A stretch of DNA of 34,978 nt from a virus. Taxonomy: Duplodnaviria > Caudoviricetes. Positions 2,808 through 25,324 of the stretch are shown piece by piece. The DNA is taken from positions 1-34,978 of the IMG/VR virus record IMGVR_UViG_3300025124_000022. One strand, written 5' to 3'. A program made the translations under genes and the position numbers. How positions within the stretch are numbered: the first letter of the stretch is position 1; every line of letters starts with the position of its first letter. The notes below the pieces were generated by a model. That model saw only the letters and a list, made by a program, of their open reading frames with translations, searched no databases and was not told the origin of the DNA.

Positions 2808-5800
2808 TCACGACGCCTTGGCTGCCTTTTGATCGTTCGCCGCATCCCCGGACCTAGCCGAATCCAGGTAAGAGGCAAGGCCAGTGTCGTCGATACCCTC
2901 AAACGGAGAGGTCAGGGTCTCGCGTAGCCCGTATTTCTTGGCGAGCCGATCACGCGCCGCCTTTTCCGACTGGTGGTCGGCAACCAAATCGATCAGCTCG
3001 ACGTCACCGGTCTGCCCGAGTCGATCTATCCTCCCATTGCGCTGAGCATGGGTCTTCGCGGTGTCGGGGGTGTCATACTGAACCAGCCACTTTCCGCGCT
3101 GCGCGTTCAACCCGACAGCGCCGGCATCGGATGCAACCAGGATGTCTCCATCCCCCCGGGCAAAGGCCTGCCGTTTCCGGTTCTTCTCCTTCGTGGAGTC
3201 GGCTCCGGTGAGGACGATGACTTTGTGACCTTCAGAGGTGAGCCTTTCGGATAGGGTCTTCACAGCCGACAAAGACCGGGCAAACACGATCCCCGGTTTC
3301 CCTTTCCGCTCCTGCGCGATCCTGGACACCTCGCCAGCCTTGGCCCCCTTGGGGTGCTCGTTCAGGATCTTGTCGACCGCAGTTCCCTTGAGGATTCCGA
3401 GGTTCCTCTGGAGCGACTGCGCCAGCGCCTCGTGCCCATTGGTCGGCACCCCCGAAAAACTCGACGGACTGATTTCCTTCATCGCCTCGACATCAACCCC
3501 CCCCTTGATCCTGGCGGCGGTGGCCCGGCCGATTGCAGCTTCAAGCCGAGACATATCGGCATGCTGCTCCTTCGATAGGGGGACATTGACCTCTGACTCG
3601 GTGGCGGAAACCCCGGAAGAGATGCGCCCAGGGTAGAGGTAGGCGGCCAGCTCCCGGCGGAGCTCGTCTTGGGATGCCGGGGTGTTGACCCCGTACCGGC
3701 GCATGAAGGCGTCGCGATCCGAATACCGGTCGGGATCGAGCTTCGAAAGCAAATCGAACACCTCGGATGTGTCGTTTTTCGCCGGATCGGCGGTGGCGTT
3801 CACGTAGTAGTTGGCGTTATCGGTCACCCCGTCGATCACGTTGGCCATGGTGCTGTTGGCCTTCCCGCTTCGGTTCAGCAGGTCGTGGCCCTCGTCGACC
3901 ATCACGTAATCGGCTCCGATCCCCTCCTTTTCAAACACCCCGCGAGACCACTCCTTGCGCTCCTCCCTCGACATACCTGCGATCCGGGAGACCATTTCGT
4001 CCTCGGTAATGCCCTCGTGGGCGGCTCCAAGGTGGACCAAATCATCGCGCAGCGACTGGTGGGTGACGACCACGAAGTGGTTTTCGGGGTTGCGCAGGGC
4101 GTTCAGACGCTCTTCGCGCGAAGCGCCGGGCTCGGCATGCCACTGGAATTTCCCAGGCTCCAGGTTCGTCAGGGCCTCGCCATTGAACTGGCCCTGGACA
4201 ATCGAGGGAACGACGAACAGACCGCGCTTGGCTTTTCCTTGACCCTGTAAGTGAGCAAAACCGGTCAGGCCGATGGTGGTTTTCCCAGACCCGACACCCT
4301 GAGCCAGCTGAATTCGGCGATTCGCCTCGATCAGCTTTACCGCGCGCTGCTGGTTGATGTACTTGCCATCCATCGTCCGGGCAAACGTGAAAGGCAGCTT
4401 TTCCCCGGGGCGGAAATTGCGCCCGACGTTCCCCACCAACGAGGCGAGCTGCCGCTCGGCGGCATGCCCCAGGGTGAACCTCTGCCCGGCCTCAATGGTG
4501 GGATCGGATGATTCCGCCTGCGGCTTCTCGCCCATGAACAGACTCATCTGGGCCTGATCCAGGGCTTCGCGGGCGGCCCGTGACTGCGCCAGCTTTTCGC
4601 TGACACCCCCTGAGGTGTATTTCCCCTGGAGGCGGTTGCGCAGCCTGTCGACCTCTTGCCGGTGGATTTCGTCGCGGCGACGCCTGGCATCTGGGTCGAC
4701 CGCGTCCAGGTGCTCAAGATCGCCCCGAATCGAACGGCTTCCAATCTTCAATGGGTCTTCGTGGATTCGGTTGTAGTGCTGACTGAACTCACGGGAGACG
4801 GCACCATTGATGTGGTCCTGGATGGCGGCATAGGCTGCCTCACGGCTGCCCATGTGGCGGATGTATCCATCCCACCCCAGGCGGGCCCCGGATAGCTGCC
4901 CCTGCATCTCCTCAACTCGCTTGTTCCACCCCTCCCATTCGGTGGACACGGCCTCACCGAAAAACCCGCGAGTCATTTTCTGCGGCTCTTTCGCCCGCAG
5001 CGCTTCCAGGTCGGACGAAAGCTGCTGGGCCTCGGGGGAGTCTCTGGCTATGTGGTTGGCGAACCACTGCCGGAGGATCCCCCTCCCCTCGTGGTCGAGA
5101 TCGCCGATGGGGGTGAATGCAACCTTCCCCTCGGGAATGGAGCCAAGGGTCCGATGCAGGGCCTCGACGGCGACGCCCTGATCCAGACGCTGCCGATGCA
5201 GGGGGGAGCGGTCGTTTCCAAACCGGTCGGAAACGAACCGATCAGCCAACCCTTGGAACTTCTCTTCGTAGGAATCGGCCTTGACCGGTTTCCCGTCTTC
5301 CCCGATGACCGGGGCAATCGAGCGCAGGGCTTCAAAGTAAGCCCCCCGGCTCCCCTCGGGGACGGTACGGATCAAATCTTCGTTGCGCAGGTCGGCCACA
5401 ATCTGGGCCGGGGCGTCGCCGTCGGCCATGCGTCCGCCGATGTAGTCCTTGATGTTTTTGCCGAGGTCTTCCCCGGGAGAAAATGGCTCGGCCATTCGAT
5501 CGGCAACCCCCATCTGGGCATTGCTCAGAAGATCGGGACGGCGGGCCATCCCCACAGGGAGCCACCCCTCCTCGTCCTGCTTGCCGGTCTGGATATCCAG
5601 GGAGGTTTTGAGTCGAGTGAAGTGGTCGCGATCAATGGGGGTGGTCAATTTGCCGATGGCGTCTGGGTTGACTGAGATGTGGGCTCCATCTGCATCCGTC
5701 GCGATTTCGAAGTCGCCATCCTCAAGGCCGATGGCTTTGGCCCGCTCGGTTGCCCCCTGCCGACCAACCTTGCCCATCGGCAGCTTCAGCGGTTTCCCGG

Positions 5801-8003
5801 CTGCATCCCGGCGCAGAGCCACGATCATGGCGGCCGTAGCCTCCTGCTCGCCCAGGGTCGTACCAAGAGCCTCCTTCATCGACTCGACGGCCTCCATGCG
5901 CGCCCGGTTGATGCGGAAGGCGTCGGCAATCCCTGCGCTGTCGACGGCATCCGGGATTTCCATCGACTCGACCTGCCTGCGCAGGCTTTCGACCTGTTGC
6001 AAGGCCTCGGTTGTTGCCTCCACCGAGTTGTCGAGGTGATACCGCTCAAGGGCACCGGCGATATCCTGGCACTTGTCATGTCCGAGATCGGAGCGCAGCC
6101 GGGCCGCCATGGCCTCGGCGGCCCCTTGAATCCCGAGTGCATCAACAACAGAACGGTCAAGTAGCCCCTGGCCGGCAACGTTGAGGGCGACCGAGTTGAA
6201 CCCGTTGTAGGCGCCGACGCCGAGGTGGCGCCGCATCGACTTGGCGTAATCCCGCCCCCCCACTTCCGAGACCTGTCCCAGAAAACCATGGGCGGCCATG
6301 GTCCTGACGTCGTCCTCGATCGATTTGCGGGCTTTCTCATCAAGGTCGACGTCCTTGGATGCCTCCAGGATGTAGGCGGTTGGGTCCGGGCTTGCGCGGC
6401 CCTGCTTGATGTCGGAGGCGGCCTTCTTTGCGGCCCGCTCGGATGCAGCCAGCTCTTTGCGCGCCTTAATGATGTCCAGCGCCTGGCTTGCCTCTTGGAT
6501 GTTGGCGGTCGGAAGGTCCGATTCCGGCTTGATTTCACCAGCCGTTTGCTCAAACCCTTCAGGGGTTGCTGCTCCCGACTCGGTAGCCGGCGGGGCGTCT
6601 TCGCCCGCCTCCTTTGGCTGATGCTCCTTGCCGACATCGGAGCGCTCTTTGTACTTCGGCGCAAAACCCAAACCGCTGGATGAGCCAGCGACAGGGTCGA
6701 GATCGCTGACGTCCAGAGCTGCCGCGCCATCGGACCCAACACCGATCCGATCAAGACCGGCGTCTTCACGCGCCGCCGGATCGTTGGCGAGCCAGTTCCT
6801 ACCGATCTTTTCGGCTTCCTTGGCGCGGCCCAAAAGAGCTCGGTGGTGCTCGTCGGCAACCGCCTGACGCTCCTTGTCGGAAAGACCTTCTAGCTTGTCG
6901 GCGGATGGCTTTAGGTCTTCGTCCTTCCACCCCAAAGCCTGGGCCGTGGCCTGGATATACCTCTTCTCGCTTTCCTTCCTGGCCGCGGCAACCTCGCCAA
7001 GCCGATCCTGTTTGGCCTGATGCACACCGGCGGCTTTGTCGGCCTTGACGCGCGCGCGCTCCTTCTCTTGGGCCTCCCTACGCTTTTCTGCGGACTCCTC
7101 CCGGTAGTGCTCCTCGCTTTTGACGCCTCGGAGCTTCAGGTAGTTGAGTTTCCCACCAGCCCCCCCGATGACGTGATAAACGCCAGTCCCGGGCGTCGAC
7201 TCCTTGACCAGCACCGGTACACCTTTGCTGTCTTCGCCGTTGGGGTGGACCGTGATCCACCGAGCCCCGGCAGGAATTGCCTTGAGGAACAATTCGGATT
7301 CGGGTAACGTCGATTTTTGAAAGGCGCTCTGGCCCCCAAACAACGACTGAAAGGTGTTTGGGGTGTATCCTCCCTCGGCCATACCAGTCGGGGGTGAGAT
7401 CCGGAGCGCCTTTTTTATTGTTTTCTCCTCGTGCACATGGATCGTCACGATGCAGTTATCCTCCCCTCCGTCCTTTAAGAACTTGGACGCTGCATAGACC
7501 ACGATTTTCCCGTCGTAACGAACGCGCCACCATTCCCACCGAATCGTCTCACCCTGTGCGTTTTTCTGGACGTCAATCGGCTCTGTCCTCGCCACATGCG
7601 GCAGCGCCAGGATGTCGCCACGGTTGATTTGTGACCCGCGCTCCTTTCCCGACATTTCACCGTGTTTCCAAAGTATTTTGACGAGCCCAAACCCCTTCTC
7701 CGTCCCGGCCGCACGCTTGAGCGCTTTCCCGGACACCACAATCTCCCCATCCCGTTCTATGGCAGGCCCCTTGGGGAGCAGAATTTCGAGATCGGAAGTT
7801 TTGATGGAAACCAGAGCGCTGAATGGCCCAGTGAGGGGGTCGGCAAGGGTTGAGTTCAACAGAGCCCTGATTTGCCGCTTCTCGTGCTTGATTCGGTGAT
7901 TTTCGTGGTCATCTCGGGGGGTGCTTCCGCCTCGTTGCCCGGGGCGGCCTTTGTGGCCCTTGAAGCTTTTCAGAAAGACGATCACTGCTCGACGAATGTT
8001 CAT
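2808..8003 (-). CDS. Large polyvalent protein: N-terminal PBECR-like (BECR-fold) RNase plus C-terminal SNF2/SF2 helicase
   Basis: Helicase motifs GVGSGKT, VDEGH, ATAD, DAGAVGLN and QRNGRIDRLGQ; GFGLVKILWKH resembles the PBECR3 GxGLxHIxxKH motif; start MNIRR at 8003 after SD AAGGGGG. Confidence 0.85.
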   Translation of the reverse strand: MNIRRAVIVFLKSFKGHKGRPGQRGGSTPRDDHENHRIKHEKRQIRALLNSTLADPLTGPFSALVSIKTSDLEILLPKGPAIERDGEIVVSGKALKRAAGTEKGFGLVKILWKHGEMSGKERGSQINRGDILALPHVARTEPIDVQKNAQGETIRWEWWRVRYDGKIVVYAASKFLKDGGEDNCIVTIHVHEEKTIKKALRISPPTGMAEGGYTPNTFQSLFGGQSAFQKSTLPESELFLKAIPAGARWITVHPNGEDSKGVPVLVKESTPGTGVYHVIGGAGGKLNYLKLRGVKSEEHYREESAEKRREAQEKERARVKADKAAGVHQAKQDRLGEVAAARKESEKRYIQATAQALGWKDEDLKPSADKLEGLSDKERQAVADEHHRALLGRAKEAEKIGRNWLANDPAAREDAGLDRIGVGSDGAAALDVSDLDPVAGSSSGLGFAPKYKERSDVGKEHQPKEAGEDAPPATESGAATPEGFEQTAGEIKPESDLPTANIQEASQALDIIKARKELAASERAAKKAASDIKQGRASPDPTAYILEASKDVDLDEKARKSIEDDVRTMAAHGFLGQVSEVGGRDYAKSMRRHLGVGAYNGFNSVALNVAGQGLLDRSVVDALGIQGAAEAMAARLRSDLGHDKCQDIAGALERYHLDNSVEATTEALQQVESLRRQVESMEIPDAVDSAGIADAFRINRARMEAVESMKEALGTTLGEQEATAAMIVALRRDAAGKPLKLPMGKVGRQGATERAKAIGLEDGDFEIATDADGAHISVNPDAIGKLTTPIDRDHFTRLKTSLDIQTGKQDEEGWLPVGMARRPDLLSNAQMGVADRMAEPFSPGEDLGKNIKDYIGGRMADGDAPAQIVADLRNEDLIRTVPEGSRGAYFEALRSIAPVIGEDGKPVKADSYEEKFQGLADRFVSDRFGNDRSPLHRQRLDQGVAVEALHRTLGSIPEGKVAFTPIGDLDHEGRGILRQWFANHIARDSPEAQQLSSDLEALRAKEPQKMTRGFFGEAVSTEWEGWNKRVEEMQGQLSGARLGWDGYIRHMGSREAAYAAIQDHINGAVSREFSQHYNRIHEDPLKIGSRSIRGDLEHLDAVDPDARRRRDEIHRQEVDRLRNRLQGKYTSGGVSEKLAQSRAAREALDQAQMSLFMGEKPQAESSDPTIEAGQRFTLGHAAERQLASLVGNVGRNFRPGEKLPFTFARTMDGKYINQQRAVKLIEANRRIQLAQGVGSGKTTIGLTGFAHLQGQGKAKRGLFVVPSIVQGQFNGEALTNLEPGKFQWHAEPGASREERLNALRNPENHFVVVTHQSLRDDLVHLGAAHEGITEDEMVSRIAGMSREERKEWSRGVFEKEGIGADYVMVDEGHDLLNRSGKANSTMANVIDGVTDNANYYVNATADPAKNDTSEVFDLLSKLDPDRYSDRDAFMRRYGVNTPASQDELRRELAAYLYPGRISSGVSATESEVNVPLSKEQHADMSRLEAAIGRATAARIKGGVDVEAMKEISPSSFSGVPTNGHEALAQSLQRNLGILKGTAVDKILNEHPKGAKAGEVSRIAQERKGKPGIVFARSLSAVKTLSERLTSEGHKVIVLTGADSTKEKNRKRQAFARGDGDILVASDAGAVGLNAQRGKWLVQYDTPDTAKTHAQRNGRIDRLGQTGDVELIDLVADHQSEKAARDRLAKKYGLRETLTSPFEGIDDTGLASYLDSARSGDAANDQKAAKAS
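7282..7310 (+). promoter_or_regulatory. Putative antisense sigma70 promoter TTGAGG-N17-TAACGT
   Basis: -35 at 7282-7287, -10 at 7305-7310, 17-nt spacer, directly upstream of a structured element. Confidence 0.5.
7317..7416 (+). ncRNA. Candidate ~100-nt structured antisense sRNA inside the helicase gene
   Basis: 13-bp closing stem, two internal hairpins and a T6 tail; its G-U pairs form only on the + strand. Confidence 0.55.
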
Positions 8004-8026
8004 CTGTTCCCCCTTGTGAGGGGAAC

Positions 8027-8050
8027 AGAATGCCGTCATGACACCACCAT
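8027..8050. promoter_or_regulatory. Bidirectional late-promoter motif (GTCATGAC with AnnnT on both sides)
   Basis: + reads GTCATGAC-ACC-ACCAT, - reads GTCATGAC-GGC-ATTCT; lies between divergent starts at 8003 and 8057. Confidence 0.6.
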
Positions 8051-12411: not shown

Positions 12412-12424
12412 ATCACGTCATGAC
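12409..12424 (-). promoter_or_regulatory. Putative late promoter GTCATGAC-GTG-ATGAT
   Basis: Recurring motif about 30 nt upstream of ATG 12380. Confidence 0.6.
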
Positions 12425-17327: not shown

Positions 17328-17343
17328 ATGGTGGCGTCATGAC
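17328..17343 (-). promoter_or_regulatory. Putative late promoter GTCATGAC-GCC-ACCAT
   Basis: Recurring motif in the terL-portal gap. Confidence 0.65.
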
Positions 17344-23806: not shown

Positions 23807-24773
23807 GCTTTCCCTCCACGGATGGTTCGTCATCAAAGCGTCGTTGGTTGAGCCACAACGCCGCATAGGGGGGGGTCGAGCCCCTGGCGAGGAGAGCGGG
23901 GCGCCGGGCAGCTTCAATCTTGGCTCCCTCGGTCGCCCTCTTGGCCACGCCAGTCGTTTTGACGTTTTCCGCCCAGGCAGCGATTGCGCCGGCAAGGCCA
24001 TGTTTGAGGTCGAAGGCCGCCCAGAACCTGGCGAACGCCCACGCCGACAATCCAGTGACCTTCACCTCCCGGCGTTTCTTCCCGCCGACGATCCCGATCA
24101 ACGCTGCCGACTCAGGGATTTCGTCTCGCTGGCGACCGAGCAAAAACCGGAGCCAATAGCGATTATCCTTCCCTTCCTCGCCGTCTTCGTCGTCTTCGAG
24201 GTCGTGTGGCCTCGAATCTTGTTCGAGGCGAATTTTCTGTTCGGAGCTACTAACACCTTCCCCTACTGGGGTACCTTCTTGTTGAGTGTTCTCCTTGTTA
24301 TATAGAGCGTGCGGATTTTCAGGTTCTAGCGTTTCTTTTAGCGTTGTATTTATCGTTTCGTCGCGTTGATCTTGGCTTTGATAAGACTCATAGTTACAAA
24401 CACTTAGGACTGTTATAGTGCGTGCGGCAGAGCGTGCCGAGGTGCGTGCAAGCGAGCGTGCGACGAGCGTGCGGCCATCAAAATCGAAAATTTCGAGCAT
24501 TCCCTCGCTTACGAGGGACGCAAGAAACCCCTGAACCTTTGAGCTCGACCACCCCCAGGCGTCCATTAAGTCTCGTACCGAGATGGGCAGTTGCCCCCTC
24601 CTAAGAGGCACAGAAACACCTCTGATTTGCCGGGTGCAGTCGCCCCAAACCGCGCTGAGCAGGAGATCTATCCAAGCCTGACCACGACTGTAGGGTTTCT
24701 CATCCCACAGCCAATTCCGGCGCAGTTCCCGGTGGAGACAAATCCACCCTGACGATGGGGCACCGTTGAGCAT
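23694..24773 (-). CDS. Phage replication initiator (O-like)
   Basis: GWICLHR...AWIDLLL...RGQ...LMDAWGWS wHTH; C-terminal FARFWAAF...WLNQRRFDDE; internal iterons. Confidence 0.85.
   Translation of the reverse strand: MLNGAPSSGWICLHRELRRNWLWDEKPYSRGQAWIDLLLSAVWGDCTRQIRGVSVPLRRGQLPISVRDLMDAWGWSSSKVQGFLASLVSEGMLEIFDFDGRTLVARSLARTSARSAARTITVLSVCNYESYQSQDQRDETINTTLKETLEPENPHALYNKENTQQEGTPVGEGVSSSEQKIRLEQDSRPHDLEDDEDGEEGKDNRYWLRFLLGRQRDEIPESAALIGIVGGKKRREVKVTGLSAWAFARFWAAFDLKHGLAGAIAAWAENVKTTGVAKRATEGAKIEAARRPALLARGSTPPYAALWLNQRRFDDEPSVEGKHAANGAYRGSPGATSGQDLSRFLGDDDGEIVDGEVVG
24285..24472. repeat. Putative replication origin: GWGCGTGC iterons plus AT-rich tract
   Basis: Copies at 24418, 24430, 24442, 24454, 24465 and 24305, flanking an AT-rich stretch inside the initiator gene. 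Confidence 0.7.
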
Positions 24774-25324
24774 CAGTTGCCGTCGACGTTTCCGTTGCTC
24801 AATGCCGCCTGGATGAATCCGGCAAGATCATCCGAATGGGCGCCATATCGAGACGCAACCTCGCTGAACTCCTCAATGGAATGGGGCTGAATTGCCCACA
24901 CTGGATCCCCTTCCTCGGTGAATCGCTCTTCACCGTCGGAATTGATGGCCTGTGCCATGTGGCAGGTCTCGTGGAAAATCAGGATCTCTCTTTGCCGGTC
25001 GGATGCCGCAGACCACCAGTAATGGTCAATCGTCACCAAGTAGTCAGGGACTCGGCCGTAGATGTTCGCCAGCGCCCATGCGAAGACGCCTTTCAACTTG
25101 CCCTGAACCGTCGGAAGGTGGACCGTGGCAAGCGTTGCGATGCCTTGCCTGATCTCGGCGCGGTGGTCGAAGAGGAAGACTACGAAGGGGGGAGGAAGAT
25201 CGAGCCTTTTAGCGTGCTCAGGCAGTGCCAAGACGCGCTCGAAATAGGGGTATGGATCGTTCTTGGGATCCAGAGATGGGTCGGGGATTGAATACCGACC
25301 GTTTCCGTCGTCAACTTGCTGCAT
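24773..25324 (-). CDS. Putative phage metallopeptidase-family protein
   Basis: PDYLVTID...ILIFHETCH...HSIEEF.EV..RYG. Confidence 0.85.
   Translation of the reverse strand: MQQVDDGNGRYSIPDPSLDPKNDPYPYFERVLALPEHAKRLDLPPPFVVFLFDHRAEIRQGIATLATVHLPTVQGKLKGVFAWALANIYGRVPDYLVTIDHYWWSAASDRQREILIFHETCHMAQAINSDGEERFTEEGDPVWAIQPHSIEEFSEVASRYGAHSDDLAGFIQAALSNGNVDGN

Follow-up and report, generated by a model that had tools for sequence, protein, structure and literature searches.

A putative antisense RNA gene coupled to a predicted PBECR-type nuclease domain in phage polyvalent proteins

As many as 26% of polyvalent phage proteins carry PBECR-type domains (PMC5512222, Iyer et al. 2017; papers are cited throughout for individual passages), where they are fused to portal, SNF2, ddrB-ParB and other virion proteins (PMC5512222). 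They are defined by a His in the N-terminal (pre-alpha) helix with a Lys before it, and by a Thr or Ser in the last strand (PMC5512222; bioRxiv 10.64898/2026.08.28.747851). In toxin-antitoxin systems of type III, tandem pseudoknot repeats lie upstream of the toxin on the same strand and share its promoter, with a terminator between the two (PMC12283969). Here we describe a compact RNA element in a tailed-phage genome (Duplodnaviria; Caudoviricetes), the 34,978-base virus record IMGVR_UViG_3300025124_000022, the whole of which is the window referred to below. A first-pass annotation had placed a self-contained + strand small RNA inside a - strand helicase gene, directly after a PBECR RNase domain, and had proposed it as a candidate antitoxin, decoy or guide. 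From the comparative evidence the element is very probably a real small-RNA gene, one of a conserved family of RNAs that apparently has not been described before and is coupled to a PBECR-type domain without a name. Full-text searches of the literature listed no account of such an RNA, and subscription papers or supplements, such as the motif tables of comparative RNA screens, could hold the motif; the main text of a 2026 preprint on RNA mining with genome language models does not mention BECR, MuF, polyvalent or barnase.

The + strand element and its homologues

The coordinates first given for the promoter boxes, helices P1 to P3, the T6 run, the complementary loop and the three G-U pairs of the + strand all match the sequence, and the predicted three-way junction (Table 1) is both the minimum free energy and the centroid structure when positions 7310-7425 are folded with RNAfold (-53.4 kcal/mol, z -5.34, with none of 200 dinucleotide shuffles equally stable). 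The - strand folds at -41.8 kcal/mol (z -3.07). A terminator scan did not list the element, of which P1 closes the entire RNA and is not a short hairpin. A covariance model, R1, whose training set includes the window, matches positions 7293-7428 with 59.8 bits. The Rfam scan proposed for the element placed it in no family; Rfam 15 gives no match at or above the gathering threshold in the window (only suhB, at E 6.1) and none at the element in 20 loci, including tRNA, CRISPR repeats, C4 and abiF. Cultured phages and plasmids yielded no match, and an exact pattern of the P1 arms found two unrelated loci. C4 antisense RNAs (Rfam RF01695) do occur elsewhere in two of the loci (L129:1940-2022 and L083:4039-4118), away from the element.

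Table 1. Positions of the element, the domain and the gene that carries them in the window.
Feature	Positions	Strand	Remarks
Predicted -35 box TTGAGG	7282..7287	+	4/6 to TTGACA; overlaps Leu-Lys codons of the host-gene FLKA motif on the other strand
Predicted -10 box TAACGT	7305..7310	+	3/6, weak here; 17-nucleotide (nt) spacer from -35
Predicted ~100-nt RNA, three-way junction	7317..7418	+	Promoter and U-tract used to infer the ends
P1 closing helix	7320-7332 with 7401-7413	+	Fold, RNAalifold, covariation
P2 hairpin	7333..7365	+	Stem 7334-7342/7355-7363; 8-nt loop GACUGAAA (7345-7352)
Junction pair C7333-G7365	7333, 7365	+	At the junction
Invariant junction motif GUAUC	7365..7369	+	60/64 homologues, three reading frames; 95-100% per column in 64 model hits
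P3	7368..7399	+	U-A 7368-7399, C-G 7369-7398; stem 7372-7379/7387-7394; loop CAUACCA (7380-7386)
GA	7398-7399	+	Nearly invariant
U6 tract, predicted terminator	7411..7416	+	Lys-Lys codons on the other strand
PBECR-type predicted RNase domain	7425..7895	-	Family without Pfam model; approximately residues 49-205 of the open reading frame (ORF)
Invariant Lys121	7677-7679	-	ORF numbering
Invariant His126	7662-7664	-	ORF numbering
Invariant Thr199	7443-7445	-	ORF numbering
Inserted cassette (domain and RNA gene)	7281..7976	-	Flanked by two FLK motifs, 7968-7976 and 7281-7289 (translation)
Host gene, 1743-aa polyvalent protein	2808..8039	-	C-terminal SNF2-type helicase; late cluster; terminase, portal, InPase and LPD1 genes upstream

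Scans for homologues of the domain yielded 84 loci with 66 distinct tails, and removal of a frameshifted locus and of a copy identical to the window left 64, with a few near-duplicates among them. The junction motif, read on the coding strand as GATAC, lies within 200 nt of the domain end in 60 of these, against 1-7 of 56-64 in seven control bins, and it falls in the three reading frames 41, 8 and 11 times. At the protein level the main frame appears as the dipeptide DT, present in 108 of 126 protein-representative tails compared with 14 of 98 windows taken as controls. Aligned by sequence alone, a set of 30 antisense tails, hand-picked for canonical length, shows GUAUC and GA to be invariant and the -10 box to be aligned, its A and T being at least 90% conserved.

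RNAalifold returns the same junction from this alignment, with double changes in 14 of 16 pairs. Extended to 22 pairs, the structure has double changes in 18, and 83.9% of its cells are paired compared with 62% in shuffled alignments and 30-52% in slid registers, the latter being a lenient control because the structure was derived from the same sequences. Double changes are seen in all five scored inner pairs of P1 and in eight of the nine pairs of P2. In a held-out set of 22 sequences P2 and P3 were recovered independently (double changes in 13 of 15 pairs); P1 was not recovered by RNAalifold in these sequences. Folded in fixed windows, 25 of the 30 hand-picked tails fall below z -2. The strand is indicated by 76 G-U pairs against 19 A-C pairs on the RNA strand in the model-fitted alignment, and by the -10 box and U-tract that this strand carries. 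The P2 loop is mostly 8-10 nt long with the form GA...AA, both P2 and P3 loops vary in sequence, and some copies carry extra helices in P3. The pairing of the P2 loop (CGACTG, 7344-7349) with P3 (CAGTCG, 7385-7390), put forward as an alternative or pseudoknot, is present in the window and is not conserved; a 6-bp match occurs in 1 of 62 aligned copies, the window alone, and the mean longest match is 3.65 compared with 3.75 for permuted partners.

A -10 box stands at the expected offset in 41 of 58 loci (2-13 at other offsets and 16 on the opposite strand), and 30 of the 44 homologues with a scored -10 box have a -35 match of at least 4/6 at 16-18 nt spacing. The U-tract, taken as at least six T in 8 nt, is found in 31 of 58 homologues (0-9 at other offsets). 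The predicted promoter first read as TTGAGG-N17-TAACGT is present and positioned as in relatives, albeit weak, and it gains support because its position aligns with their stronger -10 boxes. Promoter, junction, covariation and U-tract recur behind homologous domains; the comparison supports the self-contained + strand gene tied to a PBECR-type domain that the first-pass annotation had described, and the checks of promoter, structure and covariation that it had proposed came out positive. Its view of the overlying peptide as a linker needs refining. The 'linker' is best seen as an RNA gene read through on the other strand, because its key nucleotides are found in each of the three frames and certain genes come to a stop at the domain end. 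In 54 of 58 loci the frame runs on uninterrupted across the RNA, in 4 a stop lies between domain and promoter, and of 142 protein homologues 10 terminate no more than 25 residues past the domain. Linkers in polyvalent proteins can thus be overprinted RNA genes, which protein-centred mining would overlook.

A mobile cassette of candidate RNA gene and predicted RNase domain

The RNA and the domain occur together from whichever side they are approached. Of 67 sources that bear the domain, 60 are matched by R1 (30 of them training sequences), each time behind the domain and antisense to it, and R1 has no match in 63 host-orthologue loci without the domain (388,766 bases). Starting from the RNA with DNA patterns, 11 of 74 loci are R1-positive and nine of these adjoin the domain, four of them new; the domain is present in none of the 63 R1-negative pattern loci. 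Among 151 genomes of one order, where scoring covered only some 21 RNA candidates in each, RNA and domain are in the same three, one being the seed. A search of five whole genomes with R1 gave nine matches, all at known loci. The cassette sits in several kinds of protein, whose surroundings group into 12 clusters upstream and 18 downstream, some of them divided by contig ends. Domain identity and RNA identity are correlated with rho 0.29 over 51 loci, which we do not count as co-evolution because linkage alone yields such a correlation. Tandem RNA copies are seen at L088:2950-3169 and L152:642-1001, and in L152 the second copy is preceded by a repeated piece of the domain's last strand, which points to recombination where the cassette ends.

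The domain itself, some 155 residues within the 1743-aa protein, is likely a PBECR-type predicted RNase of an unnamed family. The catalytic pattern of Lys, His and Thr/Ser is kept in all 61 aligned domains, with Lys76, His81, Gly73, Gly82, Asp97 and Thr/Ser154 (domain numbering) invariant. In an AlphaFold2 model (predicted local distance difference test, pLDDT, 93.9) Lys76 and His81 lie in helix 73-81, and the helices are followed by strands 110-114, 120-128, 134-144 and 147-157, the last of which holds Thr/Ser154; this is the BECR layout of a helix followed by a meander of four to five strands. Single-sequence folding was unusable (pLDDT 35). The PBECR assignment of the first-pass annotation thus agrees with catalytic pattern and fold layout, and finds no counterpart in Pfam, where no PBECR1-5 or MuF_C model matches the domain. 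A word-index protein search and a PDB sequence search did not place it, and a full phmmer search found 168 relatives. Its Atlas features point to PBECR3 and PBECR1 at 0.91-0.92 with a low recognition score, and profile comparison with PBECR3 is marginal (E 0.005, probability 7%).

Late genes for terminase, portal, InPase, an LPD1 protein and the SNF2-type host protein form a single leftward cluster in the window. For comparison of the host gene, 80 loci were fetched via the region just downstream of the element and joined by two pattern loci. None of the 82 holds the RNase domain, and among 65 distinct orthologues 38 begin no more than 45 residues from a WITV motif; because orthologues start near WITV without the domain, we regard the domain and its tail as an inserted cassette. 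Other orthologues have different inserts at this position (InPase, MuF_C, PBECR2, LPD3).

We note that inserted domains in this phage group (L001-L080) are flanked by (F/L)LK(A/S)-like motifs, and that K(A/S) stands at most 16 residues ahead of WITV in 40 of 65 orthologues; these boundary motifs are possible protease or packaging signals, and the window encodes a phage metallopeptidase at 24773-25324. A further motif, GTC(A/G)TGAC, precedes several late genes (window 8035-8042, 17336-17343, 12417-12424, 2318, 20496 and 32858), and among 63 orthologue starts 30 have a CGTGAC-type motif that overlaps the upstream in-frame stop, in many cases some 15 nt 5' of the start codon. It is likely a late-promoter or regulator site.

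Other domain families also have candidate RNAs behind them. Seven PBECR3 matches above the cut-off were found in 702 genomes, and an antisense core, CG-U--GG-CGU, lies directly behind the domain in five of these (L253, L255, L256, L257 and L285), with further cores in L261, L268, L271 and L281. By eye most have a -10-like box upstream, and they mostly have a U-run. R1 does not match these cores, nor does Rfam match the tails of other domain families, PBECR3 included. A pattern scan for the core gave 16 distinct loci, eight of them, five being a single clade, behind PBECR3-like sequence by eye. An antisense hairpin with z -8.3 lies directly behind MuF_C at L021:2790-2925 (- strand), with a -10-like box and a U-tract, and there are weaker antisense candidates behind unnamed domains in L030, L063 and L064. 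Scanning the other inserts ahead of the host gene for a promoter with a stable fold gave 4 of 18 loci, or four of the nine with RNase-like inserts; nothing was found in the other five of these, nor in three LPD3 inserts and one PBECR2 insert. The chances seem to us evenly balanced that phage BECR-type RNase domains are a general class of mobile enzyme-plus-RNA cassettes, in which each family's own structured antisense RNA, directly behind the domain, binds the nuclease and controls or directs it. If so, no precedent is described for this architecture, whether toxin-antitoxin or ribonucleoprotein, and it would account for active RNases being built into the interior of virion proteins with no immunity protein at hand.

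Proposed function of the RNA and alternative explanations

What the comparison establishes is the element itself, with its covarying helices, its invariant GUAUC/GA junction and a predicted promoter and U-tract at set positions, together with the way it stays linked to the domain in head-associated proteins that are not related to one another. We give an even chance to the reading that the RNA is an antitoxin that binds and neutralizes its cognate PBECR-type RNase, working like a type III antitoxin without belonging to that type. RNAs that neutralize RNases by binding have precedent in type III systems and in AbiF/RCd22. Host polymerase with a sigma-70-type factor would transcribe the RNA apart from the late operon, the domain would recognize both the shape and the letters of the junction, and the RNase would be kept quiet in the cell that makes virion proteins and in lysogens. 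Packaged and delivered with its carrier protein, the domain may then act on host RNA in a newly infected cell, where the RNA is missing. If the RNase is active, making it in bulk alongside virion proteins would call for some restraint, which an antisense gene in the reading frame would carry in mid-protein, where a separate immunity gene could not stand; enzyme and antidote would move as one block. Protein recognition fits better than base pairing because the helices keep shape and not sequence, the junction letters are invariant and the cores are family-specific, and it is from the invariant junction and the family-specific cores only that we infer direct binding and inhibition.

Several observations weigh against this reading. 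The window promoter, a weak match, was not listed by a consensus promoter scan, the -10 box is absent in 17 of 58 loci and the U-tract is missing in 27 of 58. Held-out copies have modest stability in fixed windows (median z -1.1, with 8 of 28 below -2 compared with 1 of 28 controls). The fold assignment of the domain is based on motif logic and weak Foldseek matches, to MuF-C proteins at E 0.011-0.04 (best viral 0.011) and in the PDB to a toxin-antitoxin chain at E 0.059 (best) and a contact-dependent inhibition (CDI) chain at E 0.075; the cited passages of PMC9086364 make no mention of the CDI match. Nor is the link between RNA and domain absolute, because orphan copies exist without an adjacent domain (L114:1761-1893, L140:2579-2707, L146:3439-3579, L180:865-1000 and L241:708-798). 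Those of L114/L140 and L146 are second copies, several orphans retain GUAUC, and they could be orphan immunity or remnants. Finally, the geometry, in which the RNA converges on the toxin message and overlaps it downstream of the domain, suits an antisense RNA that acts by base pairing just as well, and a cofactor or substrate could likewise account for conserved letters at the junction.

The first of these alternatives is a cis-antisense repressor resembling those of type I systems, in which the RNA would pair with the message 3' of the domain and expose it to decay by RNase III, so that leaky expression is silenced in the lysogen. Convergent overlap with a toxin message is described for txpA/RatA and bsrG/SR4 (PMC4152353), prophage antisense RNAs against late genes exist, as in STnc6030 (PMC7067206), and where homologues end at the domain (the 10 of 142) the RNA lies over the 3' untranslated region. 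We consider it unlikely, however, since complementarity is automatic in this position and leaves the invariant junction letters and the family-specific cores unexplained, the long P1 closes the RNA and leaves no conserved free end, and GUAUC is kept in orphan copies.

A positive partner of the enzyme, whether cofactor, scaffold, guide or processed substrate, would make the cassette a packaged ribonucleoprotein delivered against host RNA or defences. This would explain the same linkage and the invariant letters, it suits loops that both vary in sequence and the extra P3 helices of some copies, and RNA-binding roles and CRISPR RNA targets have been suggested for PBECR by Iyer et al. (PMC5512222). 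Yet there is no array or long variable single-stranded segment for guiding, a promoter of its own suggests that the RNA is made separately from the late protein, and an active RNase made late would still need restraint where an immunity gene would be impossible in mid-frame; we doubt this explanation to the same degree as the cis-antisense one.

Less probable still is a decoy for host defences, a tRNA or CRISPR-repeat mimic that hitch-hikes with the domain. The P3 loops, mostly 7-8 nt with C first and AA or AC last (14 of 23 seven-nt loops compared with 20 of 189 controls), a P3 base resembling the type I-E repeat stem in 6 of 58, and the orphan copies would suit it. A U33-type position is conserved in only 6 of 23, however (A37-like in 20 of 23), ARAGORN predicts no genes in 15 loci, the element has no Rfam tRNA or CRISPR-repeat match, and different domain families with different RNAs are not predicted by hitch-hiking; neither anticodon nor CRISPR-repeat mimicry is supported as a family feature. 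Equally remote is a DNA-level signal (an attC-like recombination or mobility site for domain cassettes) or a plain terminator with no functional transcript, which the mobility of the cassette among proteins, the partly duplicated domain end and element in L152 and L088 and the folding of the - strand would favour, but which leaves the -35 and -10 boxes at a fixed distance with a conserved U-tract, the excess of G-U over A-C pairs and the confinement of model matches in five whole genomes to known loci without explanation.

If the antitoxin reading is correct, a cognate RNA in the 'disordered linker' would answer how PBECR-type domains, for which no self-protection is described when they are fused in mid-protein, are kept in check. 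The cassette would be a minimal two-part system of about 155 residues and 100 nt, and the RNA would add a new RNA family, possibly a new class of RNA antitoxin.

Comparison with known systems

Among prophage antisense transcripts over toxin or late-gene messages, RatA and SR4 (PMC4152353) share the geometry of the element and STnc6030 of prophage BTP1 (PMC7067206) its location, and overlap of an antisense RNA with the toxin message is a mark of type I systems. Those RNAs base-pair with messages for small hydrophobic peptides or late genes, and STnc6030 is 786 nt long, whereas here a compact RNA with invariant junction letters lies behind a nuclease domain; the candidate toxin, at 155 residues, is not the small hydrophobic peptide of the type I definition (PMC4152353).

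Among BECR enzymes, BECR-Tox3/DUF6883 with DUF4926 (bioRxiv 10.64898/2026.08.28.747851) likewise joins an RNase fused to a head protein with an adjacent predicted antidote. There, however, the antidote is a downstream protein, whereas here the frame usually continues and the candidate antidote is an RNA. The PBECR domains of polyvalent proteins (PMC5512222) have the same N-terminal-helix His, C-terminal Thr/Ser and mosaic architecture; the present domain differs in matching no Pfam PBECR or MuF_C model, and the cited passages of PMC5512222 describe no associated RNA.

The type III systems ToxIN, CptIN and TenpIN (PMC12283969) resemble the cassette in pairing an endoribonuclease toxin with a structured RNA proposed to inhibit by binding, in their occurrence in phages and in A-rich loops. 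Membership of type III, whose RNases the first-pass annotation had cited as being neutralized by structured RNAs, is not supported. The RNA is one three-way junction and not a series of repeats; in nearly all loci it lies on the strand opposite the toxin and downstream of it, with its own predicted promoter, inside a reading frame and with no conserved pseudoknot (1 of 62), and the BECR-type domain is fused to virion proteins and shows neither a Pfam match to the ToxN/CptN/TenpN family nor a fold match to it among the rows listed. [quoted passage not shown] AbiF, which is linked to Cas13 ancestors, is an abortive-infection protein that stands alone, and its RNA contains two abiF motifs, whereas the element here has no Rfam abiF match. 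If binding is confirmed, the cassette would be a variant of the RNA-antitoxin logic that these systems share.

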